In this document: one piece after another, positions 17,752 to 58,825 of the stretch
How the letters are laid out: each line of letters starts with the position of its first letter
How positions within the stretch are numbered: position 1 is the stretch's first letter
From: Acidobacteriota bacterium
GTDB lineage: Bacteria > Acidobacteriota > Terriglobia > Acidiferrales > UBA7541
Direction: 5' to 3'
Assembly: GCA_003223315.1 (NCBI GenBank)
Contig: QHYR01000253.1
Coordinates: 53,288-117,287, forward strand
Length of the DNA: 64,000 bases
The notes under the pieces: model-generated
What the model was told of the DNA's origin: nothing
The model's input: only the letters and a program-made list of their open reading frames with translations
The model's database searches: none
Made by a program: the position numbers and the translations under genes

Positions 17752-19229
17752 TTGAGTGAAGAAAAGAAACAACAAGTCATCGCACTGGGGAAGCTCGGAT
17801 GGCCCTTGCGGCGCATTGAGCAAGCCACTGGTGTCCGTCGAGAAACAGCGAGCGCTTACCTGAAGGCAGCCGGGATCGCGGTGCGACCGCCAGGTTCGTG
17901 GGGACGGCGAGGGCCGGCAAAACCGGCCAACGAGGTGACCACCGACCCGGGTGCGTCACCTTCCGGAAACCAAGGACCACCTGCGGACCGTCCCGACCGG
18001 TCCGCCAGTTCATGTGAACCGTATCGCGAGCTAATCGAGCAGGGACTGGGTCGTGGCCGGAATGCCATGGCCATCTGGCAGGACCTAGTTTCGGATCACG
18101 GCTTTGCGGGCGGCTATCAGGCGGTGAAGCGTTTTGTTCGCAAGCTTCGGGGATCGGAGCTGCCAGCCGCGGCGGGCATCATCCTCACCGCCGCGGGAGA
18201 AGAAGCGCAGGTCGACTACGGCAGTGGCCCGATGGTACGCGACCCGCAGAGCGGCAAGTACCGAGCGCACGCATCTGGGCCGAGCTCCATGAGAAAGCTT
18301 TTCGCCGACTCGGAGGGTGTCCCCGGGTCGTGGTTCTCGACAATCTGAAAGAGGGAGTGGCGGCTCCCGATATCTACGATCCCACCCTCAATCCCCTGTT
18401 TCGGGATGTGCTCGCGCACTACGGCGTGGTGGCGCTGCCTTGCCGGATCAAAGATCCCGATCGCAAAGGGAAAGTGGAGTCCAGCATCGGACACACGCAG
18501 AAAACACCGCTCAAAGGGCTGCGCTTCGAGAGCCTGGAAGAAGCACAGACTTATCTGGATCGCTGGGAACAGCGGTGGGCCGATACGCGCATCCATGGCA
18601 CGACAAAACGGCAGGTCGGGGCCATGTTCGCCGAAGAAAAACCGCACTTACTCCCACTGCCCATCGAACCCTTCCGGTATTACCAATACGGAGAGCGCGT
18701 CGTCCATCTGGACGGTTGCGTGGAGGTCGAGGCCGCCTATTACAGCTTGCCACCAGGATGGATCGGGCGACCGGTGAAGGTGCAATGGGATGCGCTGCAC
18801 GTGCGTATCCTGCATCCGAACACGAACCAACTTCTTCGCGAGCACCTCCGCCGGAAACGCGGCGGGTATCGCATCAAGGAAGAAGATCACCCGAAGAAAA
18901 TGCCGCTGAGCACGGCTCAGCTCTTGCGGCGTGCCGGCCACGCCGGAACCCAGATCGGCAAACTCTGCGAGTTCATCTATCACCAGCAGGGACAGACTGG
19001 CATCCGTCGCATCCTGGGGATCCTCTCCCTGGCGAAGAAATACGGTACGGCAGCGGTCGAAGATGCCTGCACGACCGCTCTCGACATCGGCGTGCATGAA
19101 TACCGCTTCGTTCGCCGTTATCTCGAGCGCCGCCCGCAACTGTTTCTACGACAAATCGATCCCCTGATTCGTGAACTCACCGAGTATCGCGATCTCATCA
19201 ATCTCAAAATCAAGGAGCAACCGGAATGA
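17752..19229 (+). pseudogene. istA: IS21 transposase IstA with internal deletion and frameshift
   Basis: The N-part reads (TTG)SEEKKQQVIALGKLGWPLRRIEQATGV...EAQVDYGSGPMVRDPQSGKYR. The second frame reads WAELHEKAFRRLGGCPRVVVLDNLKEGV...GTTKRQV.... The usual segment between ...GKYR and ...WAELHE is missing, around 18255-18275. Confidence 0.75.
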
Positions 19230-19981
19230 ATCTGATCGAGTTAAATCGCGCCTTACGACAACTGCGTCTCGGCGGCATCGCTGCCGTGCTCGAGACGCGT
19301 CTGCACCAAGCGCAAGCGGAACCGATGGCGCCCATCGATTTCCTCTCCTGTCTGGTGTCCGACGAACTGACTCGTCGCGGCGAGCGGCTGCTGGAACGAC
19401 GACGGAAGCAAGCGCAATTTCGCGACCCGCAGAAAACGCTCGATAACTTCGATTTCAACTTCAACAAGAAAATGAATCGGAGCCTGGTCTTCGACCTGGC
19501 CACGGCCACGTTCGTTGCCCGCCATGAGGACGCTCTGTTTTTAGGTCCGCCCGGCACCGGGAAAAGTCACTTGGCCCAGGCCATCGGACAGGCGGTCATC
19601 GGGCAGGGCTATCGTGTGATTTACCGCGAGGCCCACATCTTGCTCGAGGAAATCTCCGAAGCGGCTCTCGACGGAAAACGAAAAGAGCACATGGAACTGC
19701 TGGCCACCGTGCCCCTGCTCATCATCGATGACTTGGGCATGCGCAAGTTAGCGCCCACAGCAGCAGAGGAGCTGCTGGAGATCGTCATGCGCCGTTACGA
19801 ACGTGCCAGCACGCTGCTAACCTCCAACCGCCCTGTGGAAGATTGGGGCAAACTGCTGGGCGACAGTGCGGCCGTCACCGCCATGCTCGACCGCCTTCTC
19901 CACCATGGCCACATCCTCAAGTACGGGCCGCGGAGCTGGAGGACAAAAACAGACTTGCCCGATCAGGTGAAAACGGGATAA
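19226..19981 (+). CDS. istB: IS21 helper ATPase IstB
   Basis: 251 aa with Walker A GPPGTGKSHLA and Walker B LLIIDDLG. An ATGA overlap links it to the istA stop. Confidence 0.9.
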   Translation: MNLIELNRALRQLRLGGIAAVLETRLHQAQAEPMAPIDFLSCLVSDELTRRGERLLERRRKQAQFRDPQKTLDNFDFNFNKKMNRSLVFDLATATFVARHEDALFLGPPGTGKSHLAQAIGQAVIGQGYRVIYREAHILLEEISEAALDGKRKEHMELLATVPLLIIDDLGMRKLAPTAAEELLEIVMRRYERASTLLTSNRPVEDWGKLLGDSAAVTAMLDRLLHHGHILKYGPRSWRTKTDLPDQVKTG

Positions 19982-33339: not shown

Positions 33340-34257
33340 ATGAATCAGTCCATCACTACCGGTTGTTCCATCCCAGATTTCTGCTCGCAGTATGGAGACT
33401 ATCTTTTTCGTGTTCGCGGATTGGCGGCTTCCACCCGGAAGCTGCATCGACACGTCGTTTGCAGGTTCCTCACGTTTCGATTTCCAGACGGAAAAATCAT
33501 CGTGAGCGACCTTCGGTTCAGTGACCTTGTGGATTTCCTGAAAGAGGAGTTCGCACGGCTATCAAGCCGGGAGACTCAGAGAGCTTGGCTGATGATTCTG
33601 AGAAGTGTGCTCCGGTATCTCTCAGAAGCCGGACAGATTCCCAAAGGCTGGGAAGGAGCTTTACCCAAAGTCGCCAATCATAGTTATGCACGTCTACCAA
33701 AGAATCTCTCGCAGGATCAGGCTAACGCTCTTCGTGCCGCATGCCGCGGGGGAAAACCGAGACACTTTCGCAACCGAGCTCTATTGCTTTTGTTTTTGCG
33801 TCTCGGACTACGCGTGCAGGAGGTGGCTGGTCTTACTCCGAGCGACATCGACTGGAAAAATGGCTACCTGAAAGTTCGCTGCACGAAAACGTACAATGAT
33901 CGCATCCTCCCTCTTCCGCAGGATGTGGGCCGAGGGCTCGTCGCTCATCTACGCAAGTGTCGCAGCCACCCCGAACGAATATTTGAGCCGCTGAGGCCGC
34001 CGTTCACGGCAGAACGCAGCTACACCCATGTTCTCAACTCAATTCGCTACGTTTTTGGGCTGGCGGGTATCAATGACCACGGTGCGCATTCTCTTCGCCA
34101 CACCGCTGCCACAGAGATGGTGAACGCCGGCGCATCTTTCAAGGATGTCGCTGACGTGCTCGGGCATAAGTCCGTCACGACAACATTCATCTACGCCAAG
34201 CTCGATATGAAATCATTGATGCGCGTCGCACTGCCCTGGCCCGGAGGTGCGCGATGA
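33340..34257 (+). CDS. Tyrosine recombinase, first of trio
   Basis: 305 aa, with ...HSLRHTAATEMVNAGASFKDVADVLGHKSVTTTFIYAK. Confidence 0.85.
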   Translation: MNQSITTGCSIPDFCSQYGDYLFRVRGLAASTRKLHRHVVCRFLTFRFPDGKIIVSDLRFSDLVDFLKEEFARLSSRETQRAWLMILRSVLRYLSEAGQIPKGWEGALPKVANHSYARLPKNLSQDQANALRAACRGGKPRHFRNRALLLLFLRLGLRVQEVAGLTPSDIDWKNGYLKVRCTKTYNDRILPLPQDVGRGLVAHLRKCRSHPERIFEPLRPPFTAERSYTHVLNSIRYVFGLAGINDHGAHSLRHTAATEMVNAGASFKDVADVLGHKSVTTTFIYAKLDMKSLMRVALPWPGGAR

Positions 34258-35243
34258 ACATCACGAATTTGTCGGCATACCTGGAAGAGTTCTTGGCGTT
34301 AAAACGTACGATGGCCGAGGCGGAACCGCATTACGATGCGTTCGACCGCAGATCGCTACGCCACAAAGAGAAACTTCTCAGGAACTTCCTTGCTTTCTGG
34401 AATCATCATGGCTGTCCCTGGCCGATTCGTGCCGCACATGTTCTCGATTGGCTAGCTGCCGAGAGTCATCCGCAGCATCCATACCGAGGCCAACATCGTT
34501 TCTATGTCCTGCGGGCATTCTTACAACAAGTACGCGCTTTCGAACCTGAGACGGAAGTGCCAGACAAAATATTCAAGTTCCGACGGCCTCGACGGACACC
34601 CCACATATTCTCTGAGCGCGAAATTGTGCTGTTGATGCGGGCAACGCGGCATCTCCGCCTATTTGAGACTTTTCGTCCGCTGACTCTCCGCACCATGATT
34701 GGGCTGTTGGCGAGCACCGGTCTGCGCATTGGGGAAGTCCTCAGACTCAAAAGCGAGGACGCCAAGTTAACAGCCAATCCGCCCTTTCTGTTGATCTATG
34801 AAACGAAGTTTGGCAAGTCGCGAAATGTTGCTCTGCATCCAACAACGGCCCACCGCTTGAGAAGATATCTCGTCAAACGAGGAGAAGTTTTAGAGAACCG
34901 ACTGGCCAAGACCTTCTTCACAAATGTCTCAGGCAAGCCGCTTGGGTACGCCTCAACCCGCTCCACGTTTCGGAGGTTGCTGAAGCATGCCGGTATTCAG
35001 TCGGTTCCAGGACAGCGAGCTCCGTCGCTTCATTCGTTTAGGCACACGTTCACGGTAACGAGGCTCACAAGATGGCATCTTGAACGGAGAAATGTCCAGG
35101 AGTTGCTACCTCATCTGTCGGTGTACCTCGGCCATGTTGGACCGGAAAACACCTATTGGTACATGACCGCTACACCAGAACTACTCCAAACAGCTGCTGC
35201 GCTCTTCGATCGGCAGCAAAGCCAAGGAGCAGCCAACCCATGA
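34254..35243 (+). CDS. Tyrosine recombinase, second of trio
   Basis: 329 aa, with ...HSFRHTFTVTRL...YLGHVGPENTYWYM. ATGA overlap with the first gene. Confidence 0.85.
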   Translation: MNITNLSAYLEEFLALKRTMAEAEPHYDAFDRRSLRHKEKLLRNFLAFWNHHGCPWPIRAAHVLDWLAAESHPQHPYRGQHRFYVLRAFLQQVRAFEPETEVPDKIFKFRRPRRTPHIFSEREIVLLMRATRHLRLFETFRPLTLRTMIGLLASTGLRIGEVLRLKSEDAKLTANPPFLLIYETKFGKSRNVALHPTTAHRLRRYLVKRGEVLENRLAKTFFTNVSGKPLGYASTRSTFRRLLKHAGIQSVPGQRAPSLHSFRHTFTVTRLTRWHLERRNVQELLPHLSVYLGHVGPENTYWYMTATPELLQTAAALFDRQQSQGAANP

Positions 35244-36238
35244 CCACACCCGCCCTTGTCGGACCATATCTTCAGCTCTTCTTCACGGACCATCTCGTTG
35301 CGCAAAGACGCCTCAGTCCGCAGACGATTGCGAGCTATCGTGATACCTTTCGCTTGCTGCTGCAATTTGTGCACCGTGAAGCGCGTATCGAACCAGCATC
35401 CCTGTCGATACCGGAACTGCATGCGGACAGAATCCTAGATTTCCTCGACTACGTAGAGAAGGAACGCAATAACACAATTGCCTCGCGCAACTTGCGGCTT
35501 ACAGCGATACGCTCGTTTTACCGTATGGTTGCCCTCCGCGACCCGGCGAGTGTGGGAATCGTAACGCGCGTACTCGCGATTCCGCTCAAGCGTGCGGACA
35601 CCAAAGTGCGCTCGTACTTAACGCGCGAAGAAATGGATTCGATCCTTACAGTGTTGGACCGAAACCAATGGTGTGGGCGACGAGACTATGCCTTGCTTCT
35701 CACCATGTACAACACGGGCGCTCGTGTCTCAGAAATATCCTTTCTTCACCAGAATCAAGTGAACTTCGGAACAAAGAGCTACGTTCAGTTGCATGGCAAG
35801 GGACGGAAGGAGCGCTTGATCCCCCTCTGGCCCAGGACTGCCCGAATTTTGAAAGAGTGGTTCCGGGAGACTGGCCCGCGGGATAGTGCCGTCGCATTTC
35901 CCAATGTTCGTGGCGAACCGCTTTCAAGGTTTGCTATCCACCTCTTACTCCGCAAAGCAGCCCATCAAGCTGCCTCCCATTCTGTAAGCCTCAAACGAAA
36001 ACGAGTCTCTCCTCATGTGGTCCGGCACGGGACGGCGATGGCGCTACTCCAGTCGGGTGTGGATATTGCTGTCATCGCGCTCTGGCTGGGCCACGAAAGT
36101 ATAGAAACAACCAACGCCTACTTGCATGCAAATCTCGCGATGAAGGAAAAGGCCCTTGAAAAGGTCCTGCCGATGGATACACCATTCAGACGATTCCATG
36201 CAGACGACCGCTTGTTGGCGTTCTTGGAATCGATCTAA
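35240..36238 (+). CDS. Tyrosine recombinase, third of trio
   Basis: ATG 35240 overlaps the preceding stop as ATGA. MTTPALVGPYLQLFFTDHL...SYRDTF...HVVRHGTAMALLQSGVDIAVIALWLGHESIETTNAYLHA. Confidence 0.85.
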   Translation: MTTPALVGPYLQLFFTDHLVAQRRLSPQTIASYRDTFRLLLQFVHREARIEPASLSIPELHADRILDFLDYVEKERNNTIASRNLRLTAIRSFYRMVALRDPASVGIVTRVLAIPLKRADTKVRSYLTREEMDSILTVLDRNQWCGRRDYALLLTMYNTGARVSEISFLHQNQVNFGTKSYVQLHGKGRKERLIPLWPRTARILKEWFRETGPRDSAVAFPNVRGEPLSRFAIHLLLRKAAHQAASHSVSLKRKRVSPHVVRHGTAMALLQSGVDIAVIALWLGHESIETTNAYLHANLAMKEKALEKVLPMDTPFRRFHADDRLLAFLESI

Positions 36239-38849: not shown

Positions 38850-39220
38850 ACCAACTTGCAAGTGGGAGGCTCGCTTCGGCGAGCCTCCCGTTATCCCTTG
38901 CTCACTCGGGTGCGCCTGGCTCGCAGTTTTCGCCTCCCTTTGACGCGAGAGCCTTGTCTGGGGGCACGCTGGACGATGTTTGCTTCCCACGAGCGGTGCT
39001 TTGGCGTTACCGGTCTCTGACACAGACGTGTCACGCTTCGCGCCGGGCCTCCGCTCGCAAACTCTCGCGCCAGCCGTAAACACGTCTCCTGTCACTCGCG
39101 TTGCCATCCGCTTCGCCCCAGACCAGCAGCGCCTCCGCAGACAGTTCTTTCCGTGCCGGAATTTGTTCCCTCTGTCTTCGCGTGAAGGGAAGCAAATCCG
39201 ACACGAAAGAGAGAACTAAA

Positions 39221-39895
39221 ATGAATATAGAGCAGAGCAAACAATCCACCAGCGAGCCGCAGCCGAATACAGCCTTGCAAGGCGATTGCGTCGAAGTCAT
39301 GCGGCAGCTGCGCAGTTGCAGCGTTGATTTCGCGCTGACCGATCCGCCGTACCTCGCACACTATTGCTCGCGTGACGGTCGAAAAGTCGCCAACGATGGT
39401 GATGCCACTTGGCTGAAACCCGCGTTCGCTGAAATCTTTCGTGTGTTGCGCCGCGACTCGTTCTGTGTGAGTTTCTACGGATGGCATCAGGCGGACAAAT
39501 TCATCGCTGCGTGGCGCGGCGCAGGCTTCCGGCTTGCTGGGCACTTGACGTTCACAAAGCAGTACCCTTCAACGGAGCGGTTTCTCCGCTATCACCACGA
39601 GAACGCATACTTGCTCGCGAAGGGCAATCCGACGCAACCGACACAACGGATTCCCGATGTGCTCGAATGGAAATATTCCGGCAACAAGTTGCACCCCACG
39701 CAAAAGCCGCTCTGCATTCTCACGCCGCTGATTCAGTCCTTCTCGCGCCCCGGCGATCTCGTGCTCGATCCATTCTGCGGCTCCGGCTCGACGCTGCTAG
39801 CTGCAAAGCTCCAAGGCCGTCGCTTCATAGGCATCGAGCTCGATGGTGCATATTGCGATGTCGCGCGTCACCGGCTCGTGCCAAGAGCCGCCTGA
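39221..39895 (+). CDS. Orphan DNA methyltransferase (DPPY motif; N6-adenine/N4-cytosine, beta class)
   Basis: ...GDCVEVMRQL...FALTDPPYL... (motif IV), then ...HPTQKPLCILTPLI...VLDPFCGSGSTLLAA (motif I). No adjacent restriction endonuclease gene. Confidence 0.85.
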   Translation: MNIEQSKQSTSEPQPNTALQGDCVEVMRQLRSCSVDFALTDPPYLAHYCSRDGRKVANDGDATWLKPAFAEIFRVLRRDSFCVSFYGWHQADKFIAAWRGAGFRLAGHLTFTKQYPSTERFLRYHHENAYLLAKGNPTQPTQRIPDVLEWKYSGNKLHPTQKPLCILTPLIQSFSRPGDLVLDPFCGSGSTLLAAKLQGRRFIGIELDGAYCDVARHRLVPRAA

Positions 39896-40164: not shown

Positions 40165-40689
40165 TTGACCTCTTGGGTAGAGAGATCGATCCCGCCGTAT
40201 TGTCCGTTGCCCAACAAATCGCTCCCTCGTGCAGTCCCGCATGGCGAAAGGCTTCTCCGCGATCCGGCCTTGGCGCTCAGCCTCTTTGAACAGGCCGCTG
40301 CGACCGTTTCAAAAATCCTCAAAGAAAAGGCAGCGTCGGGCAAACCCGGAATACGGGATATGCGCCGCTATCTTTTCCGCACGTATTTGAGGCGAATCAG
40401 TGTCGAAAGGAAAGCCAGTCTTGCGTTGGATGATGCGACCGAGGAGGAGTGGCAGAAGCATGCACGGCAAACCGATGACAGCGATGTCGAGCGCCAAATT
40501 CTAGTGAAGGAACTGCTGGAAACCTGTGATACATTGACGCGAGAAATCCTGTATCGCAGGTTGGAAGGCTTTTCGTGGAGAGAAATCGAGAAATCCTGCG
40601 GCGTTCCGGTGAATGCCGCCAATTTGCGATTCAGCAAGGCTCTTCGGCGTCTCCGAAAGGCAGTTCGGGCAACAGGGCGTTATAGCTGA
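40165..40689 (+). CDS. Sigma-70 family (ECF-like) sigma factor
   Basis: Region 4 HTH reads ...REILYRRLEGFSWREIEKSCGVPVNAANLRFSKALRRLRK. A region-2-like segment reads ...RRYLFRTYLRRI. The start is uncertain. Confidence 0.55.
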   Translation: MTSWVERSIPPYCPLPNKSLPRAVPHGERLLRDPALALSLFEQAAATVSKILKEKAASGKPGIRDMRRYLFRTYLRRISVERKASLALDDATEEEWQKHARQTDDSDVERQILVKELLETCDTLTREILYRRLEGFSWREIEKSCGVPVNAANLRFSKALRRLRKAVRATGRYS

Positions 40690-49225: not shown

Positions 49226-50023
49226 ATGAAAAACAGGATTCGCTTTTTGCGTGTGGAAAGGGGATGGACCCAGCAATCTCTGGCCAACCGCGTCGGGATA
49301 ACTCGCATGATGATCAGCCTCTTTGAACACTGGAGGCGCGACCCGAGCTTGGCGCTCGCCTACCGCTTCGCCGATGCGTTCGAAAAGAGGATTGACGAGG
49401 TATTCCCCCACGAACCGGAGACTCTCCGACCGGAGGAGCCAGAGGCAACGGCATCCGAACTGGAGCTCTCCTCAATCGAAACAACCCGCCCGAGACAAAA
49501 CCTCGTCCGCGCCTTACGAATCGCCAAACGTTGGTCCCAAAGAGAACTGGCGGAACGAGTGGGCGTCTCCGTGTGCACCATGAACGCCATCGAGAGGGGT
49601 TCGTGTAAACCGAGTCTCGCGCTCGCGTATGGCATTTCGCAAGTGTTGGGCGCGAGCGTTCTTGAGATCTTTCCACCCGATGCTTTCAGGAAGGTGATGC
49701 CACCTGCAGCTTCGAGCGAGGAAGCCCCCATGATTGCGAATGCTCTGATCCTGACCATCGCCATCCTGCTCGGATACGGCTTCTGGCTCATGGACCAGGT
49801 GAAGTTCATGGCCTCTTACAAGGCCGTCATCTTCCATGCCTACGGGCCGGTGCTTCTGACTGCGGTTGCCGTCCTGTTCCTGAACGTTTTTGGCGCTGCT
49901 CTGGCCATCAACCGGAGGTTCTTCCTTAAAGACACAGGACGCAAACTCTCGCACCTCGACAAACAGTTCAATGTTGGACAGACGGAGATGCCCGCTCCCT
50001 CCGACGACGAGGAGCCGAATTGA
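49226..50023 (+). CDS. Membrane-anchored regulator with two XRE-type HTH domains
   Basis: HTH 1 is LRVERGWTQQSLANRVGITRMMISLFEHWRRDPS. HTH 2 is LRIAKRWSQRELAERVGVSVCTMNAIERGSCKPS. Two C-terminal TM segments follow. Confidence 0.75.
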   Translation: MKNRIRFLRVERGWTQQSLANRVGITRMMISLFEHWRRDPSLALAYRFADAFEKRIDEVFPHEPETLRPEEPEATASELELSSIETTRPRQNLVRALRIAKRWSQRELAERVGVSVCTMNAIERGSCKPSLALAYGISQVLGASVLEIFPPDAFRKVMPPAASSEEAPMIANALILTIAILLGYGFWLMDQVKFMASYKAVIFHAYGPVLLTAVAVLFLNVFGAALAINRRFFLKDTGRKLSHLDKQFNVGQTEMPAPSDDEEPN

Positions 50024-50024
50024 G

Positions 50025-50960
50025 ATGTCCCGCGATTTCTATTCCTACGATCCGCAAGACACGCGGGATACAACCCCTCGCCGTCCTCACAGGGAGCACG
50101 AGGCGGATGTCTCTGAAACGCGCACAAACAGAGGTTCGGGAGATGCACCCCACAATGGCCGTGAAGCCCCGGAAACACTTGACCGGAATGTTCTGAAGCC
50201 CGAACGCGAAGATTCCCCTCGCGCTTACTATGTGCGCGACCGTGCGTATCTCCTCCGCGAATCTGAAATCCATACACTCAGCGAAGTGGGCCGGTTCCGC
50301 GTTGTTGCTCCGCCTGACCTCGCAAAGTACGGCTACGCCCGCGACAGTGCCCGCATGGAGCGGGATATCAGGCGGCTAAAAGAGCAGTCTCTGCTTACGG
50401 ACAAAACCCTTGAAACCTCGCAAAGACAGACGTTGCGCGTCCTCACCCTGACCAAGCAGGGGCAGCGGCTTCTCAAGAAGACGAACCGGCTCCACGAAGA
50501 CCAAGCCATCTACCACGGTTTGGTAAAGCCGCGAGAGGCAAAACACGACGCCGATTTGTATCGCCTTTATCACAAGGAAGCCGCCCGGATCGAACGCGCT
50601 GGCGGCAGGCCGGTGCGCGTCATTCTGGACTACGAACTGAAGCGAGACCTCAATCGAGACCTAGCCGCGCTCGGGCCAGACAAAGACGACCCTGATGCGA
50701 AGGAATTGATCGCCGAAAAGCACAGGCTTCGTGTCGTCAACGGCAAGATTCCCGTGCCCGACGTTCGCATTGAGTACGAGACCGCACAGCGTGAACTCAG
50801 CCGCGTGGACCTGGAACTGGCAACGAGCCACTACCGGCCTCGGGGATTGGCTGCAAAAGCCAAGGCGGGATTCTCCCTCTACAGCCGCCCCGAAGACGCA
50901 TCCCGTCTGCGCCGCATTCTGAACGACCAGGACCTTACCGCAGGAATCCTTGCGCTATGA
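50025..50960 (+). CDS. Replication-relaxation (Replic_Relax)-like protein
   Basis: 311 aa. ...LLRESEIHTLSEVGRFRVV...LKEQSLLTDKTL... looks like a wHTH, and ...KHDADLYRLY...VPDVRIEYE... looks nuclease-like. The family call is from memory of PF13814 features and is tentative. Confidence 0.45.
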   Translation: MSRDFYSYDPQDTRDTTPRRPHREHEADVSETRTNRGSGDAPHNGREAPETLDRNVLKPEREDSPRAYYVRDRAYLLRESEIHTLSEVGRFRVVAPPDLAKYGYARDSARMERDIRRLKEQSLLTDKTLETSQRQTLRVLTLTKQGQRLLKKTNRLHEDQAIYHGLVKPREAKHDADLYRLYHKEAARIERAGGRPVRVILDYELKRDLNRDLAALGPDKDDPDAKELIAEKHRLRVVNGKIPVPDVRIEYETAQRELSRVDLELATSHYRPRGLAAKAKAGFSLYSRPEDASRLRRILNDQDLTAGILAL

Positions 50961-51964
50961 ACATCTCTTCTTCCCATCTCAACGCCTTGAAAGCATTCGG
51001 CTACACCGAGGACGAAGCGCGGTTTCTTTACATCGTTGCGACCCACTCGGGCTACTTTGTGGCGCGTCAATTCCTTGCCTTCACCGAAGCTCATTGGGGC
51101 AAACGAACAACCACCTTTTGGGACAAACTCCACACGAAGAAACACGCCCGCACGGAATGTTTTCCGAAGAGCGGAGTCATCTATCACCTCTTCTCGCGGA
51201 AGCTCTACCGCCAGATCGGACGAGAGAACCTTCGCAACCGCCGCGAACATGAAATCGAATTCATCCGGCAACGCATCGCAATCCTCGATTTTGTCCTCGC
51301 AAATCAACAGCGGACGTACCTCGAAACCGAGCCAGAAAAGGTCCGCTATTTCTGCGATCAACTGAAGGTGCCCAATCACTTTCTGCCCGCGAAAACCTAT
51401 CACGGACAGCGAACCTCCCAGCCAACCGTTCGCTATTTCGTGGACAAGTTCCCGATGTCCCTTGGCAATGAAGTCTCCTCCTCCCCTGTGGTGACGTTCA
51501 CATACATCCAGGGGGCCGAGGCAAGCCTGACCGATTTTGTTCACCACCTGGAAGCCTACCTGCCGCTCTTCCGGCAGCTTTCCGAGTTCCGATTCCTGTA
51601 CCTCGCCCGGACAGATTCCCACTTCGAAAAGGCAAAGGAACTGTTCGACTCCCTCATCACAATTCCGCTCGAATCCGACGCGACGAAGGACATCCTCCGG
51701 TACTTCCACATTCGCAAGGCTTGGGATCTCAAGCAATACCCTACCCTGACCGAAGGTGACCTGATTTTCCGAAATGACGCCAAGGGGCGGTTCGCCGGGG
51801 ATCGATTCGAGCACCTGTATCGCGGATGGAAGGCCGCGCGAGTGACAGAGGCGAACATCCGTCAGGAGTTCGGCGGAGACGGCCTCCATCACACGGTGCA
51901 TTTTGCCGTGCAAGTCCTTGGACGGGTCGCCGCAGCGGACGGCGAACCCACCGAAAAAGGGTGA
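50957..51964 (+). CDS. Hypothetical protein (335 aa), possibly a second Replic_Relax-like protein
   Basis: ATGA overlap with the upstream gene. ...LNALKAFGYTEDEARFLYIVATHSGYFVARQF.... Confidence 0.45.
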   Translation: MNISSSHLNALKAFGYTEDEARFLYIVATHSGYFVARQFLAFTEAHWGKRTTTFWDKLHTKKHARTECFPKSGVIYHLFSRKLYRQIGRENLRNRREHEIEFIRQRIAILDFVLANQQRTYLETEPEKVRYFCDQLKVPNHFLPAKTYHGQRTSQPTVRYFVDKFPMSLGNEVSSSPVVTFTYIQGAEASLTDFVHHLEAYLPLFRQLSEFRFLYLARTDSHFEKAKELFDSLITIPLESDATKDILRYFHIRKAWDLKQYPTLTEGDLIFRNDAKGRFAGDRFEHLYRGWKAARVTEANIRQEFGGDGLHHTVHFAVQVLGRVAAADGEPTEKG

Positions 51965-52007
51965 AGAGGATAGAAACGATGTGCTGCACCTTTTTCTTCA
52001 CCACTTT

Positions 52008-52199
52008 CTGCACCCTGGGTGCAGCGAAGTCTTTGACCGAGAGAGCAATAGAAACGCAGCAAGGAGAAAAGACGCCGTGGAAAAAACACCAAATCGGGCG
52101 GGAGCGACCCCACTTTTTCGGCCTTCAGCCGCCCAAGTGAACCGTGGGGTCGCTCCCGCCCTCCGGCACAGATGACTGTGCCAGGTGTTTTTTCCACGG
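52008..52199. promoter_or_regulatory. Candidate oriT: cluster of nested perfect inverted repeats
   Basis: Palindrome CTGCACCC-t-GGGTGCAG is at 52008-52024. The outer 16-bp IR pairs 52075-52090 with 52184-52199. The inner 18-bp IR pairs 52096-52113 with 52144-52161. The hairpin GGCACAG-atga-CTGTGCC is at 52165-52182. Confidence 0.5.
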
Positions 52200-52247
52200 T
52201 GACGGAGAAAGGCACAAGGCAAGTCAAAACATCCGAGGAGGAATGAA

Positions 52248-52490
52248 ATGTCCATCATCAAGAAAGCACCGGCAATCAAGACCCGCGAAGTTCATCTCGA
52301 AGAACCCGTCAACGAGCTGCTCGAAGACTATGCCCGGTTCATCGAAAGCACCCCGGACCACGTTCTGAATGCGGCCCTGAAGAAGGTCCTCTGGCGGGAC
52401 CAGGACTACCGGAAGTGGAGAGACCAGCGCCGCAACGCTCAGTCCGGTTCTGAGAAGACACAGCCCGTGGACACAAGGGTAAGGACATGA
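52248..52490 (+). CDS. Small hypothetical protein (80 aa) upstream of the coupling protein
   Basis: A GAGGAGG RBS precedes the start. The stop overlaps an ATG at 52487 as ATGA. Confidence 0.5.
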   Translation: MSIIKKAPAIKTREVHLEEPVNELLEDYARFIESTPDHVLNAALKKVLWRDQDYRKWRDQRRNAQSGSEKTQPVDTRVRT

Positions 52491-52599: not shown

Positions 52600-54483
52600 G
52601 TGATCGCCATGCGTGCCCCCCATGCCTTCCTGAGCTTCCAGTACCTCTACAACATCGTCCTGTTCACAACGCCGTTCATGGTCTTTTCAGCCGTGCTTTC
52701 GGGCCTCTACATCTTCACGTTGAAAGTCCGTCGGCACATCTCGCCGGGCCGCCTCCCCCGGTATCCCGACCCACGCAAAAGGAACGAGCTTTATCTCACG
52801 GTCGGCGAGGTTCACAACCCTCGCAAACCGGGACCATCCGAGACCCCGCGATGGCTCACCATTCCCGAACGCGGATTGTTCACCGGGATTGCGATTTTCG
52901 GTGCTGTGGGAAGCGGCAAGACGAGCTGCTGCATGTACCCGTTTGCCGAGCAGACTCTTGCCTACAAAGCAGCGGACAAAGAGGAGCGAATCGGCGGTCT
53001 CATCCTCGAAGTCAAAGGAGACTTTTGCCGCAAGGTGAAGGGCATTCTCGACCGCCACGAACGGGGTGAGGATTACATCGAAATCAGCCTCGATTCCGAA
53101 TACCGATACAATCCCCTCCACAACGACCTGGATGCCTACGCGCTGGCCTTCAGCATCGCGTCCCTGTTGAACAACCTCTTTGGCCGTGGCAAGGAACCTT
53201 TCTGGCAGCAGGCGTACACGAACCTCGTCAAGTTCATCATCCTTCTTCATAAGGTCGCCTACAACTATGTGACCCTTTTCGATGTCTACCAGTGCGCCAT
53301 CTCGCCAACGATTCTGGAAGAGAGGATTCGCGAGGCCGAAGAGATCGTCTTGGGACGCCACTATGTGGCCATCAAGCCAGATGTCTTTGGAGCGCGCACG
53401 GCGGACCTCGCTGGACATGGATTCGTTCACGATCCCAAAGAAGACCGCTATCTCGCCCCGGCCACCCCGCAACTCCGCGAGACGCTGCAAAACAGGGGAA
53501 TCGGCTTCGAGTCCCGGAGCGTCCTCGACCCCGCGCAAGCCGACGCCGACAAGCTCGAACAACTGGAAGCCGTCAAGCGTTGGTTCAATGACGACTGGAA
53601 ACGCATCGAGCCGAAGCTGCGGACCTCCATCGTCGAGGGAATCTCCGTCTTCCTTTCTCTCTTCGACGACAACCCGAAAGTGAAGAAAGTCTTTTGCCCG
53701 AAGAAGGAGTGCTACGACCCCGCAAAGAACGTCAACAATATCTATGGCAAGCCCCTTCCTTCATTCTCCTGGCTCATTGAAAAGGGCAAGGTTTGCGCCC
53801 TCAATTTTCCCATCGGGATGAACCCAGGACTCGCGAAGGCTCTCGGCGTCATGATGAAGCTCGATTTTGAACGCGCCGTCCTCAACCGCGTTCCTGAAAT
53901 CGAAGCTCACCCAGAGCGGTATTTCAGGCAGGTCCTCTTCCTCTGCGATGAGTACCAGCACTTCGCAACCGTGGGCGAAAACGACCCCACAGGCGACGAG
54001 AAATTCTTCAGCCTCTCGCGCCAGCCGAAATGCATCCCCATCATCGCCACGCAGAGCATCAGTTCGCTCAAATCCGCCCTGCCGGGGGATAGCTGGCGCA
54101 CGCTCTTGCAAACTTTCCGCACGAAGATTTTCCTCGCGCTTTCGGATGATTTCTCCGCTCGCACTGCGAGCGAGCTTTGCGGACGGGAAGACAAGCTCAA
54201 GGTCAGCTACAACCTCTCGGAGAGCGGCCACGACGCCAGAGTGAGTCTGCTCACCGGGAAGGCCGTCTCACACAAGGCCAACATCACGGCATCGAAGAGC
54301 TACAACACGCAAAGCGACTACCGCTTCGACATGAAGACATTCACCGAGTTGCGCAACGCGCAATCGGTGACGATTGCCTACGACGGCTTGAATCCGATGC
54401 CGCCCATGTTCTGCTACCTGAAGCCCTACTTCAACGATCCGAACAAGTCTTACTTCAAGCAGCTCGCGGAAGGAGGCCTGTGA
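52600..54483 (+). CDS. virD4: Type IV coupling protein VirD4/TraG family (5' end uncertain; see finding)
   Basis: Walker A is FGAVGSGKTSCCMYPF. The 627-aa product is a large NTPase, with ...LFLCDEYQHFAT... as a Walker B-like motif. A likely first TM segment lies in another frame at 52487-52603. Confidence 0.85.
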   Translation: MIAMRAPHAFLSFQYLYNIVLFTTPFMVFSAVLSGLYIFTLKVRRHISPGRLPRYPDPRKRNELYLTVGEVHNPRKPGPSETPRWLTIPERGLFTGIAIFGAVGSGKTSCCMYPFAEQTLAYKAADKEERIGGLILEVKGDFCRKVKGILDRHERGEDYIEISLDSEYRYNPLHNDLDAYALAFSIASLLNNLFGRGKEPFWQQAYTNLVKFIILLHKVAYNYVTLFDVYQCAISPTILEERIREAEEIVLGRHYVAIKPDVFGARTADLAGHGFVHDPKEDRYLAPATPQLRETLQNRGIGFESRSVLDPAQADADKLEQLEAVKRWFNDDWKRIEPKLRTSIVEGISVFLSLFDDNPKVKKVFCPKKECYDPAKNVNNIYGKPLPSFSWLIEKGKVCALNFPIGMNPGLAKALGVMMKLDFERAVLNRVPEIEAHPERYFRQVLFLCDEYQHFATVGENDPTGDEKFFSLSRQPKCIPIIATQSISSLKSALPGDSWRTLLQTFRTKIFLALSDDFSARTASELCGREDKLKVSYNLSESGHDARVSLLTGKAVSHKANITASKSYNTQSDYRFDMKTFTELRNAQSVTIAYDGLNPMPPMFCYLKPYFNDPNKSYFKQLAEGGL

Positions 54484-55317
54484 TGAACGGATTCGAGATG
54501 ATTCTTCCTTTCCTCAAACCTATCGAGCACCTCATCCTCGACGACTCCATCAGCGAAGTCATGGTAAACGGACCGGACCAGGTGTTCATCGAGAAGGCTG
54601 GCTTCCTGCAGCAGGTCAAGGGTGTCTCACTCGGGGAGAAATCTCTAATGGTCGCCGTGAAGAACATCGCCCGGCGTCTGGGCAACGACATCTCGGAATC
54701 GAAGCCTATTCTCGACTCGCGATTGCCGGACGGCAGCCGAGTCGCTGCGGTCATCCCGCCGTGCAGTTTGAGCGGAGTCACTCTGACGATCCGCAAGTTC
54801 AATACGCGGCATTTCGAGATGCAGGACCTCATCAATGCCGGCACGCTCGACCGATCGCTCGCCAACCGTCTTGAGGATTATGTAGTTCATCCCGGAGGAC
54901 CAACGAATCCTTCTCATTGAGGACACGGCTGAGATTCAAATGGTCCAGCCGAACCTTGTCCGGTTCGAGGCCCGGCAAGCACAGAACGGTATCCCGGCAG
55001 TGGCGATCCGCGACCTCCTGAGGGCCGCCCTCCGGCATCGCCCGGACCGCATCATTCTCGGCGAGATTCGTGGGGGCGAGGCCTTCGACCTTTTGCAACT
55101 CCTGAACACGGGCCATTCGGGGACGCTTTCAACCATTCATGCGAACTCCGCTCGGCAAGGACTTGCCCGGTTCACGAGCTGCGTTCTACAGAGCGGAGTG
55201 GACCTGCCTTACCGCGCCATCAAGGCCAACATCGGCGAATCACTCAATGTGGTTATCCAGATCGAACGGAGACCGGGACGCAGGTTCATTTCGGAAGTCC
55301 TAAATCAACGGCTATGA
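54483..55317 (+). pseudogene. virB11: VirB11-type traffic ATPase with internal deletion removing Walker A
   Basis: The N-domain runs MNGFEMILPFLKPIEHL...TLTIRKFN... to ...LEDYVVHPGG. The frame then changes at about 54898-54903 to QRILLIEDTAEIQ...ILGEIRGGEAFDLLQLLNTGHSGTLSTIHAN. The GxGKT segment is absent. Confidence 0.75.
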
Positions 55318-55374: not shown

Positions 55375-56265
55375 GTGACCGGAGATTCCCAATTCACACC
55401 AAAGCCCCTGTCAGCTTCGGAGTACGCCCTGGCACTCTTCGAGCCTTCGGACAATGTAGCAGTCTTGCTTCGAAATCGCAGGACTGGCCAAACGGTGCAA
55501 CGAATCACAACGGCGGAAACCGTGGCAAGTCCAGAATTCCAATCCTCGCTGAGACGGGAGAACTCCGCTGGCGCGGACATTTTCATAGGAATGAACCCGA
55601 TCAAGGACGGCGCCTACAGCCGGACGAAGAGCAACATCCGGGAAATTCGCCATCTCTATCTCGACCTCGACACGAATGGTCACGAGGCCGTGGAGTCCAT
55701 TCGCAACTCGCCCGAAGTTCCCGCACCGAACTTCATCCTCGATACCTCTCCCGACAAACACCAGGTCGTTTGGAGAGTCGAAGGACTAGACCAAAAGCAG
55801 GCTGAGTCAATGCTACGCACCATGGACGATCAGTTTGGCGGCGATCCTGCAGCGACCGACTCCACGCGAGTTTTGAGGCTGCCGGGTTTCGCCAACAAAA
55901 AGTACGACGAGGAATTCGTTGTTCAGGTCCTCCACGAATCGAACCAGGTTTATCACTCCCGCGATTTCATGGTTCAGGAGGATTCGCCCGACACATCCCG
56001 CCATCTGGGGGACAAATCCGGGCGGAGATTGTCACAGGGACACAAGAGCCAGTCCGAACAGGATTGGGCCTACGCCAAGCGCGCCCTCGCCCGTGGCGAC
56101 GACCCGGCACTCGTCATCCAGCGGATCGCCGACTTCCGCGCCGACGACAAGCAAGACCCCGAATACTACGCACAACACACCGTCGCCAAAGCCCAAGCGC
56201 AAATAGAAAACAACAATGACCACGTGCAACCCGAAATTGCAGAGAGAATCGACGTGAAGCGTTGA
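55375..56265 (+). CDS. RepB-type DNA primase domain protein
   Basis: ...ADIFIGMNPI...IRHLYLDLDTNG...ILDTSPDKHQVVWRV...GGDPAATDSTRVLRLPGFANKKY matches RSF1010 RepB'-like primase motifs. Confidence 0.7.
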   Translation: MTGDSQFTPKPLSASEYALALFEPSDNVAVLLRNRRTGQTVQRITTAETVASPEFQSSLRRENSAGADIFIGMNPIKDGAYSRTKSNIREIRHLYLDLDTNGHEAVESIRNSPEVPAPNFILDTSPDKHQVVWRVEGLDQKQAESMLRTMDDQFGGDPAATDSTRVLRLPGFANKKYDEEFVVQVLHESNQVYHSRDFMVQEDSPDTSRHLGDKSGRRLSQGHKSQSEQDWAYAKRALARGDDPALVIQRIADFRADDKQDPEYYAQHTVAKAQAQIENNNDHVQPEIAERIDVKR

Positions 56266-57862: not shown

Positions 57863-58825
57863 CTAGCAGGAGAAGGGGTCTGGGGAAGGGGACGGCATTT
57901 GAGTCTCCTTCCCCAGCAGTCCTTTAGAAGTCTTTTTGTTGTTCTCTTCGTTCTCAAAAAACTCCATCGTCGCGCTTCGAGATGCGGCCTGGCACTCAGC
58001 CTTTCGCTCGAATTCTTCCGGAGATCGATAGCCCAACGCCGAGTGCAACCGCTGCCGATTGTAATACCGCTCCATGAACTCTTCGATGTTCGTCCGTAAA
58101 TGTTCTAGGTTCTCGTACTTGTTGGTGTAGATTTCTTCCCGCTTCAGCGTCTTGATGAAGCTTTCGCAGCTGGCATTGTCGTAGGGGTTCGCCGGCCGAC
58201 TCATGCTCGGAATCATGTGGTACTTCTCGAGGATGGCTATATATTCCGCGCGAGCGTATTGAAACCCCCGATCCGAGTGATGCACCAGGCCGGGTTCGGG
58301 CTGTCGGCACTCGATGGCTTGCTCCAGCGCCCCGATCGTTAGTCGAATGGCCAAAGTTCGATCCAGTGCCCAGCCCACCACTTTGCGTGAGAACCCATCG
58401 AGGATCACCGCCAAGTAGACAAATTCCGCCTTCAGCCGAATGTAGGTGATGTCCGCTACCCACAGCTGATTGATCCCGCGCAGCTTCATCCGAGCAGCTA
58501 AGTTCAGATATACCTCGAACTTGTGGTTCGAGTCCGTGGTGACCTTGAACCGCTTCGGCTGTAGGGCCAGCAGGTTATCTTCCCGCATGATCCGCACCAC
58601 CCGTTTGTGGTTTATCTGCATTCCTCGACGGCGCAGCTCCGCGGTGATTCGCCGATAGCCGTAGCGGCGGCGATGCTCCAAGGCAATTTGTTGGATCGCA
58701 GATCGCACTTCCATCTCTTCCTCAACAGGTTGCTGTTCCTGCAGCGACCGGTAAAAGCCCCGGCGGCTGACCGGCACCATCTGACACATGCGCCCGATAC
58801 TCAGGCTGCCTTGCAATGACATCAC
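57863..58825 (-). CDS. IS3 transposase OrfB (DDE integrase core), probably expressed as an OrfAB fusion by -1 frameshift
   Basis: ...WVADITYI...HHSDRGFQY...NASCESFIKTLKRE.... The -1 frame is open from the T TTT TTC heptamer (reverse complement of 58909-58915) in orfA. Confidence 0.85.
   Translation of the reverse strand: MMSLQGSLSIGRMCQMVPVSRRGFYRSLQEQQPVEEEMEVRSAIQQIALEHRRRYGYRRITAELRRRGMQINHKRVVRIMREDNLLALQPKRFKVTTDSNHKFEVYLNLAARMKLRGINQLWVADITYIRLKAEFVYLAVILDGFSRKVVGWALDRTLAIRLTIGALEQAIECRQPEPGLVHHSDRGFQYARAEYIAILEKYHMIPSMSRPANPYDNASCESFIKTLKREEIYTNKYENLEHLRTNIEEFMERYYNRQRLHSALGYRSPEEFERKAECQAASRSATMEFFENEENNKKTSKGLLGKETQMPSPSPDPFSC

Follow-up and report, generated by a model that had tools for sequence, protein, structure and literature searches.

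The p335-p80 Intergenic Region and Its Element

We analyzed a 64-kb window (the whole stretch of contig QHYR01000253.1 presented above, to which the coordinates refer) from a member of the Acidobacteriota, and concentrated on a non-coding stretch of about 240 bp whose direct repeats and nested hairpins occupy positions 51984-52201. The stretch lies in a 283-bp gap of an integrative conjugative element (ICE), directly between the gene p335 and the genes for p80 and a type IV coupling protein (T4CP), and we regard it as a putative origin of transfer (oriT). The first part of the element encodes a DNA methylase, VirB2, VirB3, VirB4, VirB9, VirB10, VirB6, a double helix-turn-helix (HTH) protein, p311 and p335; the gap is followed by p80, the coupling protein, VirB11, a RepB'-type primase, an HTH_17 excisionase and a tyrosine integrase (Table 1). 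The hosts of the related elements are uncultured Acidobacteriota, mostly "Acidiferrales."

An earlier reading based on the letters of the window (the sequence-only reading) described four structures in the gap, namely a 17-nt palindrome, an outer inverted repeat (here P1), an inner inverted repeat (P2) and a 7-bp hairpin (part of P3). All four were recovered where it had placed them, as was the additional half-site CTGCACC at 51984-51990. The P1 arms are separated by 93 nt and enclose P2, which has a small hairpin in its loop, and P3, whose T6 run doubles as part of the P1 3' arm. Upstream of P1, the triple CTKCACC array with its 12-bp period is a candidate protein-binding site; it occurs nowhere else in the window and was reproduced in 0 of 100 shuffles. 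Both strands of the intergenic region, folded as single-stranded DNA, were far more stable than shuffled sequences (-69.6 kcal/mol for the + strand and -72.7 kcal/mol for the - strand, against approximately -40 kcal/mol; z = -7.5 and -8.9, respectively), and none of 200 shuffles was as stable. A chance origin of these structures is thus excluded.

The claim that no open reading frame explains the structures needs some qualification: mechanically predicted frames do overlap the region, but the syntenic alignment described below contains 1-nt indels and has a non-coding pattern of conservation. No Rfam 15 family matched the window under gathering and E-value thresholds (the best sub-threshold hits were miRNA hairpins with E > 1), and tRNA and tmRNA scans of the window returned nothing. 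Neither arm sequence has a second full copy anywhere in the 64 kb. The coupling-protein gene contains, about 1.9 kb downstream (53973-53990), a sequence close to the P2 5' arm (GGGCGAAAACGACCCCAC, 3 mismatches), which encodes GENDPT there; it has the same place in relatives, with 1-3 mismatches (L021 9015, L010 9019). The chance expectation for such a match is 0.06 per window, and it may be a coincidence preserved by coding constraint.

Table 1. Genes and structural features of the p335-p80 region and positions of tandem-hairpin islands.
Feature	Position (in the window unless a locus is named)	Strand	Description
p311	50022..50960	+	311 aa; N-terminal winged helix, C-terminal alpha/beta domain with invariant acidic residues
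p335	50957..51964	+	335 aa; candidate relaxase upstream of the hairpin element
Inverted CTKCACC copies	51960-51966 and 52018-52024	-	The second copy generates the 17-nt palindrome
Direct repeats CTGCACC / CTTCACC / CTGCACC	51984, 51996, 52008 (51984..52014)	+	Exact 12-bp period
17-nt palindrome	52008-52015 / 52017-52024		Last direct repeat and inverted copy
P1 5' arm	52073..52090		Outer stem, 16 bp perfect (52075-52090 / 52184-52199), with C-G and G.T pairs extending it to 52073 / 52201; A6 run at 52081-52086
Linker AAATC	52091..52095		Nearly invariant, column conservation 0.93
P2 inner hairpin	52096..52161		18 bp perfect (52096-52113 / 52144-52161), 30-nt loop
Mini-hairpin CGGC/GCCG	52119-52131		4 bp, inside the P2 loop
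P3	52165..52193	+	7-bp hairpin (52165-52182), then T6 at 52188-52193
P1 3' arm	52184..52201		Outer stem
p80	52248..52490	+	80 aa; conserved GAGGAGG Shine-Dalgarno sequence at 52236-52242
T4CP	52600..54483	+	VirD4/TraG-like; Pfam TrwB_AAD_bind, TraG-D_C
RepB'-type primase	55375..56265	+	Pfam RepB_primase PF16793, E 4.8e-28
Tandem-hairpin islands	L089 1714-2519; L135 3962-4588; L146 2236-2829; L149 10012-10810; L154 232-1039; L197 895-1700		Tandem hairpin units

Conservation and Co-variation of the Stems

Two sets of related sequences were compared. The first was selected by p335 and consisted of 80 genome loci with p335 relatives at 57-96% identity; the second was selected by the hairpin, through a non-circular metagenome scan with the two P2 arms, and comprised at least 120 contigs with exact arms. 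The sequence-only reading had predicted that the repeats should be kept in homologous elements, and this was found to be the case: both P2 arms, with at most 3 mismatches allowed in each, lie 136-143 nt past the p335 stop codon in 66 of the 80 loci.

From this set, 49 syntenic gaps were aligned with MAFFT and evaluated for column conservation and pairing. The P2 arms reached 0.96-0.99 and the loop 0.93, so that the hairpin with its loop is conserved at about 95%, whereas values were 0.81-0.85 for P1 and P3, 0.77 for the direct repeats and 0.65-0.70 for the spacers. The flanking genes had means of 0.76 and 0.80, with peaks of 0.82 and 0.88 in 66-nt coding windows. The P2 core is thus more conserved than any flanking window of the same length, and therefore under stronger constraint than the neighboring proteins. 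The direct repeats of the 49 relatives follow the pattern CTnCACC..CTTCnCC..CTTCACC. It is this repeat motif that has been kept among them, and not the palindrome: the 17-nt palindrome, which is present in the window, belongs to the direct-repeat array.

Pairing in the two less conserved stems was evaluated in the same MAFFT alignment. Together, P1 and P3 kept their pairing in 90% of cells, compared with 43-51% when the partner was slid, and 0 of 500 shuffles reached the observed values. Double-sided changes occurred in 16 pairs; 14 of these belong to P1 (14 of its 19 pairs), and the co-variation in P3 is located at the top of the stem. The suggestion that the arms co-vary in intergenic regions of relatives was thus borne out for P1 and P3.

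The hairpin-selected set gave a similar picture among the matches listed. In 52 of 152 distinct instances the outer stem had 10 or more perfect bp, with many unrelated sequences; this was seen in none of the shuffles. When the p335-selected set was turned into a covariance model, this gave full-length, strongly polar matches throughout. Double-sided changes were found in 19 of 19 P1 pairs, 7 of 7 P3 pairs and 4 of 4 mini-hairpin pairs, with P2 almost invariant, in an alignment that was fitted to the covariance model and hence favors structure. Overall, these comparisons indicate that selection acts on the sequence of P2 and on the pairing of P1 and P3.

G.T and A.C mismatches were counted to see in which nucleic acid and on which strand the stems may act. 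In the MAFFT alignment G.T and A.C were balanced in P1 (39 vs. 42) and P2 (9 vs. 12), and so they were in 123 non-overlapping instances among the matches listed (107 vs. 136 and 16 vs. 22, respectively). This lack of a G.T excess argues against a one-strand RNA for P1 and P2, which fit DNA hairpins, a cruciform or the use of both strands. In the same 123 instances the + strand had more G.T than A.C in P3 (30 vs. 5) and in the mini-hairpin (10 vs. 2); the P3 signal is mostly due to a single position that closes the loop, and it lacks phylogenetic independence. A terminator scan recognized P3 with its T6 run as a consensus intrinsic terminator on the + strand; such a terminator leaves P1, P2 and the direct repeats unexplained. 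The 7-bp hairpin that the sequence-only reading counted as part of an oriT is present, but together with the T-run it looks like a + strand terminator of the p311-p335 transcript, nested in the larger element.

Distribution of the Hairpin

In the p335-selected set the T4CP gene follows in 53 loci, which represent the ICE type, whereas about 16 loci lack both T4CP and p311. The latter have the order p335, hairpin, p80, excisionase and integrase, a layout like that of integrative mobilizable elements; in L047 the order is p335, hairpin, a p80-like gene, an HTH_17 excisionase, a tyrosine integrase and the chromosomal PEPCK gene.

Where the listed matches of the hairpin-selected set are flanked on each side by 1.3 kb or more, p335 and p80 accompany the hairpin in 22 instances, p80 alone in 20, p335 alone in one and neither in 23; many instances of the last group are extra hairpin copies. 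A p80-family gene is located within 450 nt downstream of most of the listed hairpins, also of those without p335. No hairpin match was found in viral contigs, and blastn and tblastn searches against plasmids gave no match; the loci that were found are all integrated.

Several small islands without p335 or genes of a type IV secretion system (T4SS) have two to three tandem, non-identical hairpin units at intervals of 250-500 nt; a p80-like gene and, in many cases, an integrase adjoin them (Table 1). This is the pattern expected for a cis-acting transfer site that is retained by mobilizable and by relaxase-less hitcher islands. Islands of this kind are known: the genomic islands mobilized by SXT/R391 lack a relaxase and carry only an oriT copy. 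"Minimal hitchers" have been described as relaxase-less mobilizable islands with nothing but an oriT copy (bioRxiv 10.64898/2026.01.13.699239). The islands found here are comparable, being small and integrated and having the hairpin, p80 and an integrase but neither p335 nor T4SS genes; unlike the known ones, they often hold two to three tandem, non-identical copies of the putative oriT core.

Second copies with the same P2 stem were also observed in L043 (8035-8100), L044 (7548-7620), L048 (7540-7610) and L045 (2050-2370); their loops are larger, different and furnished with small hairpins of their own. L044 and L048 have another outer stem (GCGGCCAAAACA) and another P3, and in L045 the hairpin and p80 module appears to be tandemly duplicated.

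Candidate Relaxosome Proteins

No canonical relaxase, and in particular no HUH relaxase, was detected in any part of the 64-kb window. The sequence-only reading had placed the structures between putative relaxosome genes and the coupling-protein operon, the classical position of an oriT. The gap indeed separates candidate relaxosome genes from the T4CP gene, but the two "relaxosome" proteins, p311 and p335, have no Pfam match, and only one of them, p335, has a weak link to MOBC relaxases.

The p335 family is very large, with 3255 homologues and, at 50% identity, 2169 clusters. For p335 itself nothing matched in Pfam, NCBIfam or the PDB sequences, nor was PF13814 found in 52 diverse relatives. 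The comparison of interest is that with TraX, the relaxase of pAD1-like plasmids, which is PD-(D/E)XK-like, carries a winged helix at its N terminus and binds to a set of five direct repeats at a distance of 70-120 bp from nic (PMC12857230). In pTEF1, a pAD1-like plasmid typed as MOBC by MOB-suite, the relaxase is annotated as "replication-relaxation" (PF13814), and a TraX/PF13814 family profile was built from it. With hhalign, p335 aligned colinearly and weakly to this profile over 194 columns (E 0.016, probability 2.8%), and the C-terminal halves alone gave E 0.0027 and a probability of 11%. The alignment spans the winged helix and three core motifs (RYFVDKFP/KYFVxDF, VVTFTY/INWxFEIELT and FRLVYVA/A.LIYVTPS). 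This likeness is suggestive, and p335 is possibly a remote relative of the MOBC/replication-relaxation proteins and a candidate relaxase. Unlike TraX, p335 remains under the PF13814 threshold. The CloDF13 record, which is poorly annotated and has an apparent frameshift, yielded no MobC sequence for comparison.

The homologues of p311 are all 311 aa long, and the gene is confined to the T4SS-bearing (ICE) versions of the element. Its AlphaFold2 (AF2) model has a predicted local distance difference test (pLDDT) score of 82-93 in the C-terminal domain, and Foldseek returned only winged-helix regulators for it (PadR/MarR winged helices). There was no Pfam match for p311, no PF13814 in the 30 relatives scanned, and nothing meaningful from its profile against PDB sequences; against TraX only the winged helix aligned, with no significant link.

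The p80 profile matched ribbon-helix-helix (RHH) domains over their full length, in PutA with E 0.042 and in CopG with E 0.39, so p80 is probably an RHH protein and, as such, a candidate relaxosome accessory or hairpin-associated DNA-binding protein. RHH is the fold of most relaxosome accessory proteins (PMC12857230).

Comparison With Known Origins of Transfer

The closest structural parallel to the region was found in the gap between the T4CP and relaxase (TraX) genes of pTEF1, which contains the type of oriT2 described for pAD1, a pheromone plasmid of Enterococcus faecalis. There, five direct repeats with a 12-bp spacing precede an outer perfect inverted repeat of 18 bp (106 nt between the arms), which surrounds an inner perfect one of 25 bp with a 27-nt loop and a small loop hairpin. 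The Acidobacteriota region likewise adjoins coupling-protein and (candidate) relaxase genes, and has repeats of 12-bp period followed by nested perfect inverted repeats that together cover about 125-140 bp, the inner one having a small hairpin in its loop. The two regions are dissimilar in DNA sequence, in the number of repeats (three in the window, five in pTEF1), in the distance from the repeats to the outer stem (57 nt as opposed to about 18 nt) and in gene order; moreover, the window has an additional hairpin, P3, inside its outer stem, and comes from a diderm host with a VirB-type system. The nic site of pAD1 reportedly lies inside the large inverted repeat, and this repeat is said to be common to pAD1 and pAM373, with the direct repeats setting specificity. 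The invariant P2 and the variable direct repeats would parallel that pattern.

The oriTs served by HUH relaxases (RP4, R388, RSF1010/R1162) offer a more distant comparison. Classically, they have an inverted repeat next to the nic site. The present region shares with them an intergenic cis site by mobilization genes, an inverted repeat with maintained pairing and a gene for a probable RHH accessory protein alongside; it differs in the lack of an HUH relaxase in the window, in a much larger and nested inverted repeat and in having no recognizable nic consensus.

The Region as a Putative Origin of Transfer

We have a cis site beside the mobilization and coupling-protein genes of a conjugative element, kept with p335 across most of the loci, including versions without T4CP or p311, and a short direct-repeat array beside a large nested inverted repeat, as in MOBC-type oriTs. 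The resemblance to these oriTs is one of architecture, and a place in their family is tentative. Our preferred interpretation, held with moderate confidence, is that positions 51984-52201 are the oriT of an Acidobacteriota ICE with a terminator-like hairpin embedded in it. The oriT proposed by the sequence-only reading is thereby supported in part: it has passed the test of conservation and co-variation, and its layout matches the pAD1-type oriT region.

In the mechanism that we envisage, a winged-helix protein, most likely p335, would bind the three CTKCACC repeats spaced by 12 bp, and the nested inverted repeat beside them would extrude or refold as hairpins P1 and P2. One strand would then receive a nick within the invariant P2 core or next to it, p80 serving as an accessory protein, and the coupling protein encoded downstream would hand this strand to the VirB-type secretion system. 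P3 and its T-run would also terminate the p311-p335 transcript. We infer the binding, the nic position and the cutting protein; by analogy with the pAD1-type oriT, nic may be expected at approximately 52084-52134, from the P1 5' arm to the P2 loop.

Several observations weigh against this interpretation. In the hairpin-selected set the hairpin has a closer link with p80 than with p335. P2 is missing from four ICE-type loci (L056, L064, L066 and L078); in L056 and L078 it was apparently deleted between GCGG microhomologies, with P1, P3 and the T-run kept, so either P2 is dispensable or these copies are dead. Co-variation of the arms would be equally expected if one protein bound both arms as duplex DNA. 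The wobble bias of P3 and its terminator form point to a transcriptional role for part of the structure, and the core was also found in metatranscriptome contigs; these have no strand information or clear ends and therefore do not decide between RNA and DNA. As for p335, its score against TraX is under any trustworthy stand-alone significance threshold (hhalign probability 3-11%), the "ExE..K" motif of TraX has no clear counterpart in it, and its AF2 model, made with close homologues, is unusable (pLDDT 43).

A broader proposal, which we advance tentatively and doubt somewhat more than we believe, is that p335 is the founding member of a hitherto undescribed relaxase family, with a winged helix and a nuclease-like domain, remotely akin to MOBC and abundant in soil Acidobacteriota (thousands of clusters). 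The oriT of this family would consist of repeats of 12-bp period and a near-invariant hairpin, copied, often as two to three tandem variants, into many relaxase-less islands that would hitch-hike on these elements.

Alternative Explanations

The region could instead be a transcriptional element, that is, a terminator or attenuator between the p311-p335 and p80-T4CP operons, in which the direct repeats serve as the operator of an HTH regulator and the structure, as RNA or as a roadblock at the DNA level, controls read-through into the transfer genes. The consensus terminator form of P3 and T6, the + strand excess of G.T in P3 and the mini-hairpin and the presence of the core in metatranscriptome contigs all agree with this, as do the A6 and T6 runs that flank the hairpins in the manner of bidirectional terminators and the end of the element about 45 nt ahead of the p80 Shine-Dalgarno sequence, in keeping with the tight p80 linkage. 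However, a 66-nt stem-loop kept at about 95% identity while its neighbors fall to 57% protein identity is not terminator-like, P1 and P2 have no wobble bias, and no Rfam match was obtained for the window. L056 and L078 retain P3 and the T-run without P2, and therefore termination needs no P2. The tandem arrays of two to three copies, 250-500 nt apart, are unexpected for a terminator, and their occurrence in relaxase-less islands is hard to explain on that basis. For the region as a whole we consider this account unlikely.

Unlikely too, and ranked by us just behind the transcriptional account, is a single-strand priming or replication signal modeled on the IncQ oriV, where iterons accompany a large inverted repeat that carries ssiA and ssiB. 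Here the direct repeats would be iterons for p335 as the initiator, and the nested hairpins single-strand initiation sites for the RepB'-type primase, used to replicate the excised circle or for complementary-strand synthesis in the recipient. Such a primase is encoded 3.2 kb downstream in the same element, direct repeats with a large inverted repeat make an origin-like layout, P1 and P2 have no strand bias, which is expected if both strands are used, and the name of the PF13814 family itself is "replication-relaxation." The RSF1010 protein RepB' depends on complex hairpins that lie on opposite strands as inverted repeats (PMC8567376). Those sites (ssiA and ssiB, 40 nt, each with a hairpin of its own) differ from P1 and P2, whose arms have no internal hairpins, and the 7-mers with a 12-bp period are not iterons of about 20 bp. 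Moreover, no RepA- or RepC-like genes are present among the window proteins, the hairpin persists in islands without a primase or p335 within reach, and the loci are all integrated, with no plasmid match.

We regard it as improbable that the region is some other protein-binding site of the recombination or maintenance module, such as a p80 or excisionase site, a resolution site or a MITE-like repeat. In relaxase-less islands the hairpins do adjoin p80, excisionase and integrase genes, the copy number varies from one to three and the outer stem resembles terminal inverted repeats, but in the window and in the 53 ICE-type loci more than 4 kb with the T4CP, VirB11 and primase genes lies between hairpin and integrase; the position is strictly syntenic, only one copy is found in 64 kb, there is no target-site duplication, and the scan of viral contigs yielded no copy. 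Of the specific candidates, a MITE was rejected because of the single copy in 64 kb, the synteny and the lack of duplication at the ends, and an attP arm because in the ICE versions the integrase lies over 4 kb away. An Frpo-like single-strand promoter was dropped because a scan of the region found no -35/-10 hexamers, and none were seen in the stems.

Other Features of the Window

The VirB11 ATPase gene (54484-55317) is broken. In comparison with L001 it has a 74-bp deletion with a junction near 54886, which deprives the gene of its Walker A motif (SGGTGTGKTT) and causes a frameshift, and there is a second lesion, a 2-bp deletion near 55302, close to the 3' end. With VirB11 broken, the copy in the window probably cannot transfer itself, while the putative oriT in it is intact.

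At the head of the VirB operon we found genes for an N6/N4 DNA methyltransferase (39101-39895) and for a small protein whose domain resembles sigma-70 region 4 and also matches DUF6362 (40165-40689). Upstream of the conjugation genes, three tyrosine recombinase genes (305, 329 and 360 aa) stand in a row at 33340-36238 and may represent a separate recombinase-trio element inserted nearby. Insertion sequences are represented by an IS21-like pair at 18330-19981 (a Mu-transposase C-terminal/rve_3 fragment and an IstB ATPase) and by an rve-family transposase insertion sequence on the - strand at 57863-58825, directly after the integrase of the element. The host flank (1-30000) is an exopolysaccharide/exosortase locus with genes for glycosyltransferases, a heparinase II/III-like protein, asparagine synthase, an EpsH exosortase, DUF3485, a large TPR protein and PEP-CTERM proteins.

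Significance for Conjugation in Acidobacteriota

To our knowledge, conjugation in the Acidobacteriota, which are among the most abundant soil phyla, is essentially unstudied. The locus described here gives a concrete, testable putative oriT of about 240 bp, together with three candidate relaxosome proteins without a Pfam family, and so opens Acidobacteriota conjugation to direct testing. The sequence tag GGCGGGAGCGACCCC...GGGGTCGCTCCCGCC retrieves related elements and putative hitcher islands from metagenomes (at least 120 contigs). Our analysis thus points to a putative relaxase family and to hitcher islands that are invisible to current typing tools. If p335 is indeed a relaxase, the current MOB-typing tools would miss a large class of conjugative and mobilizable elements in soil.

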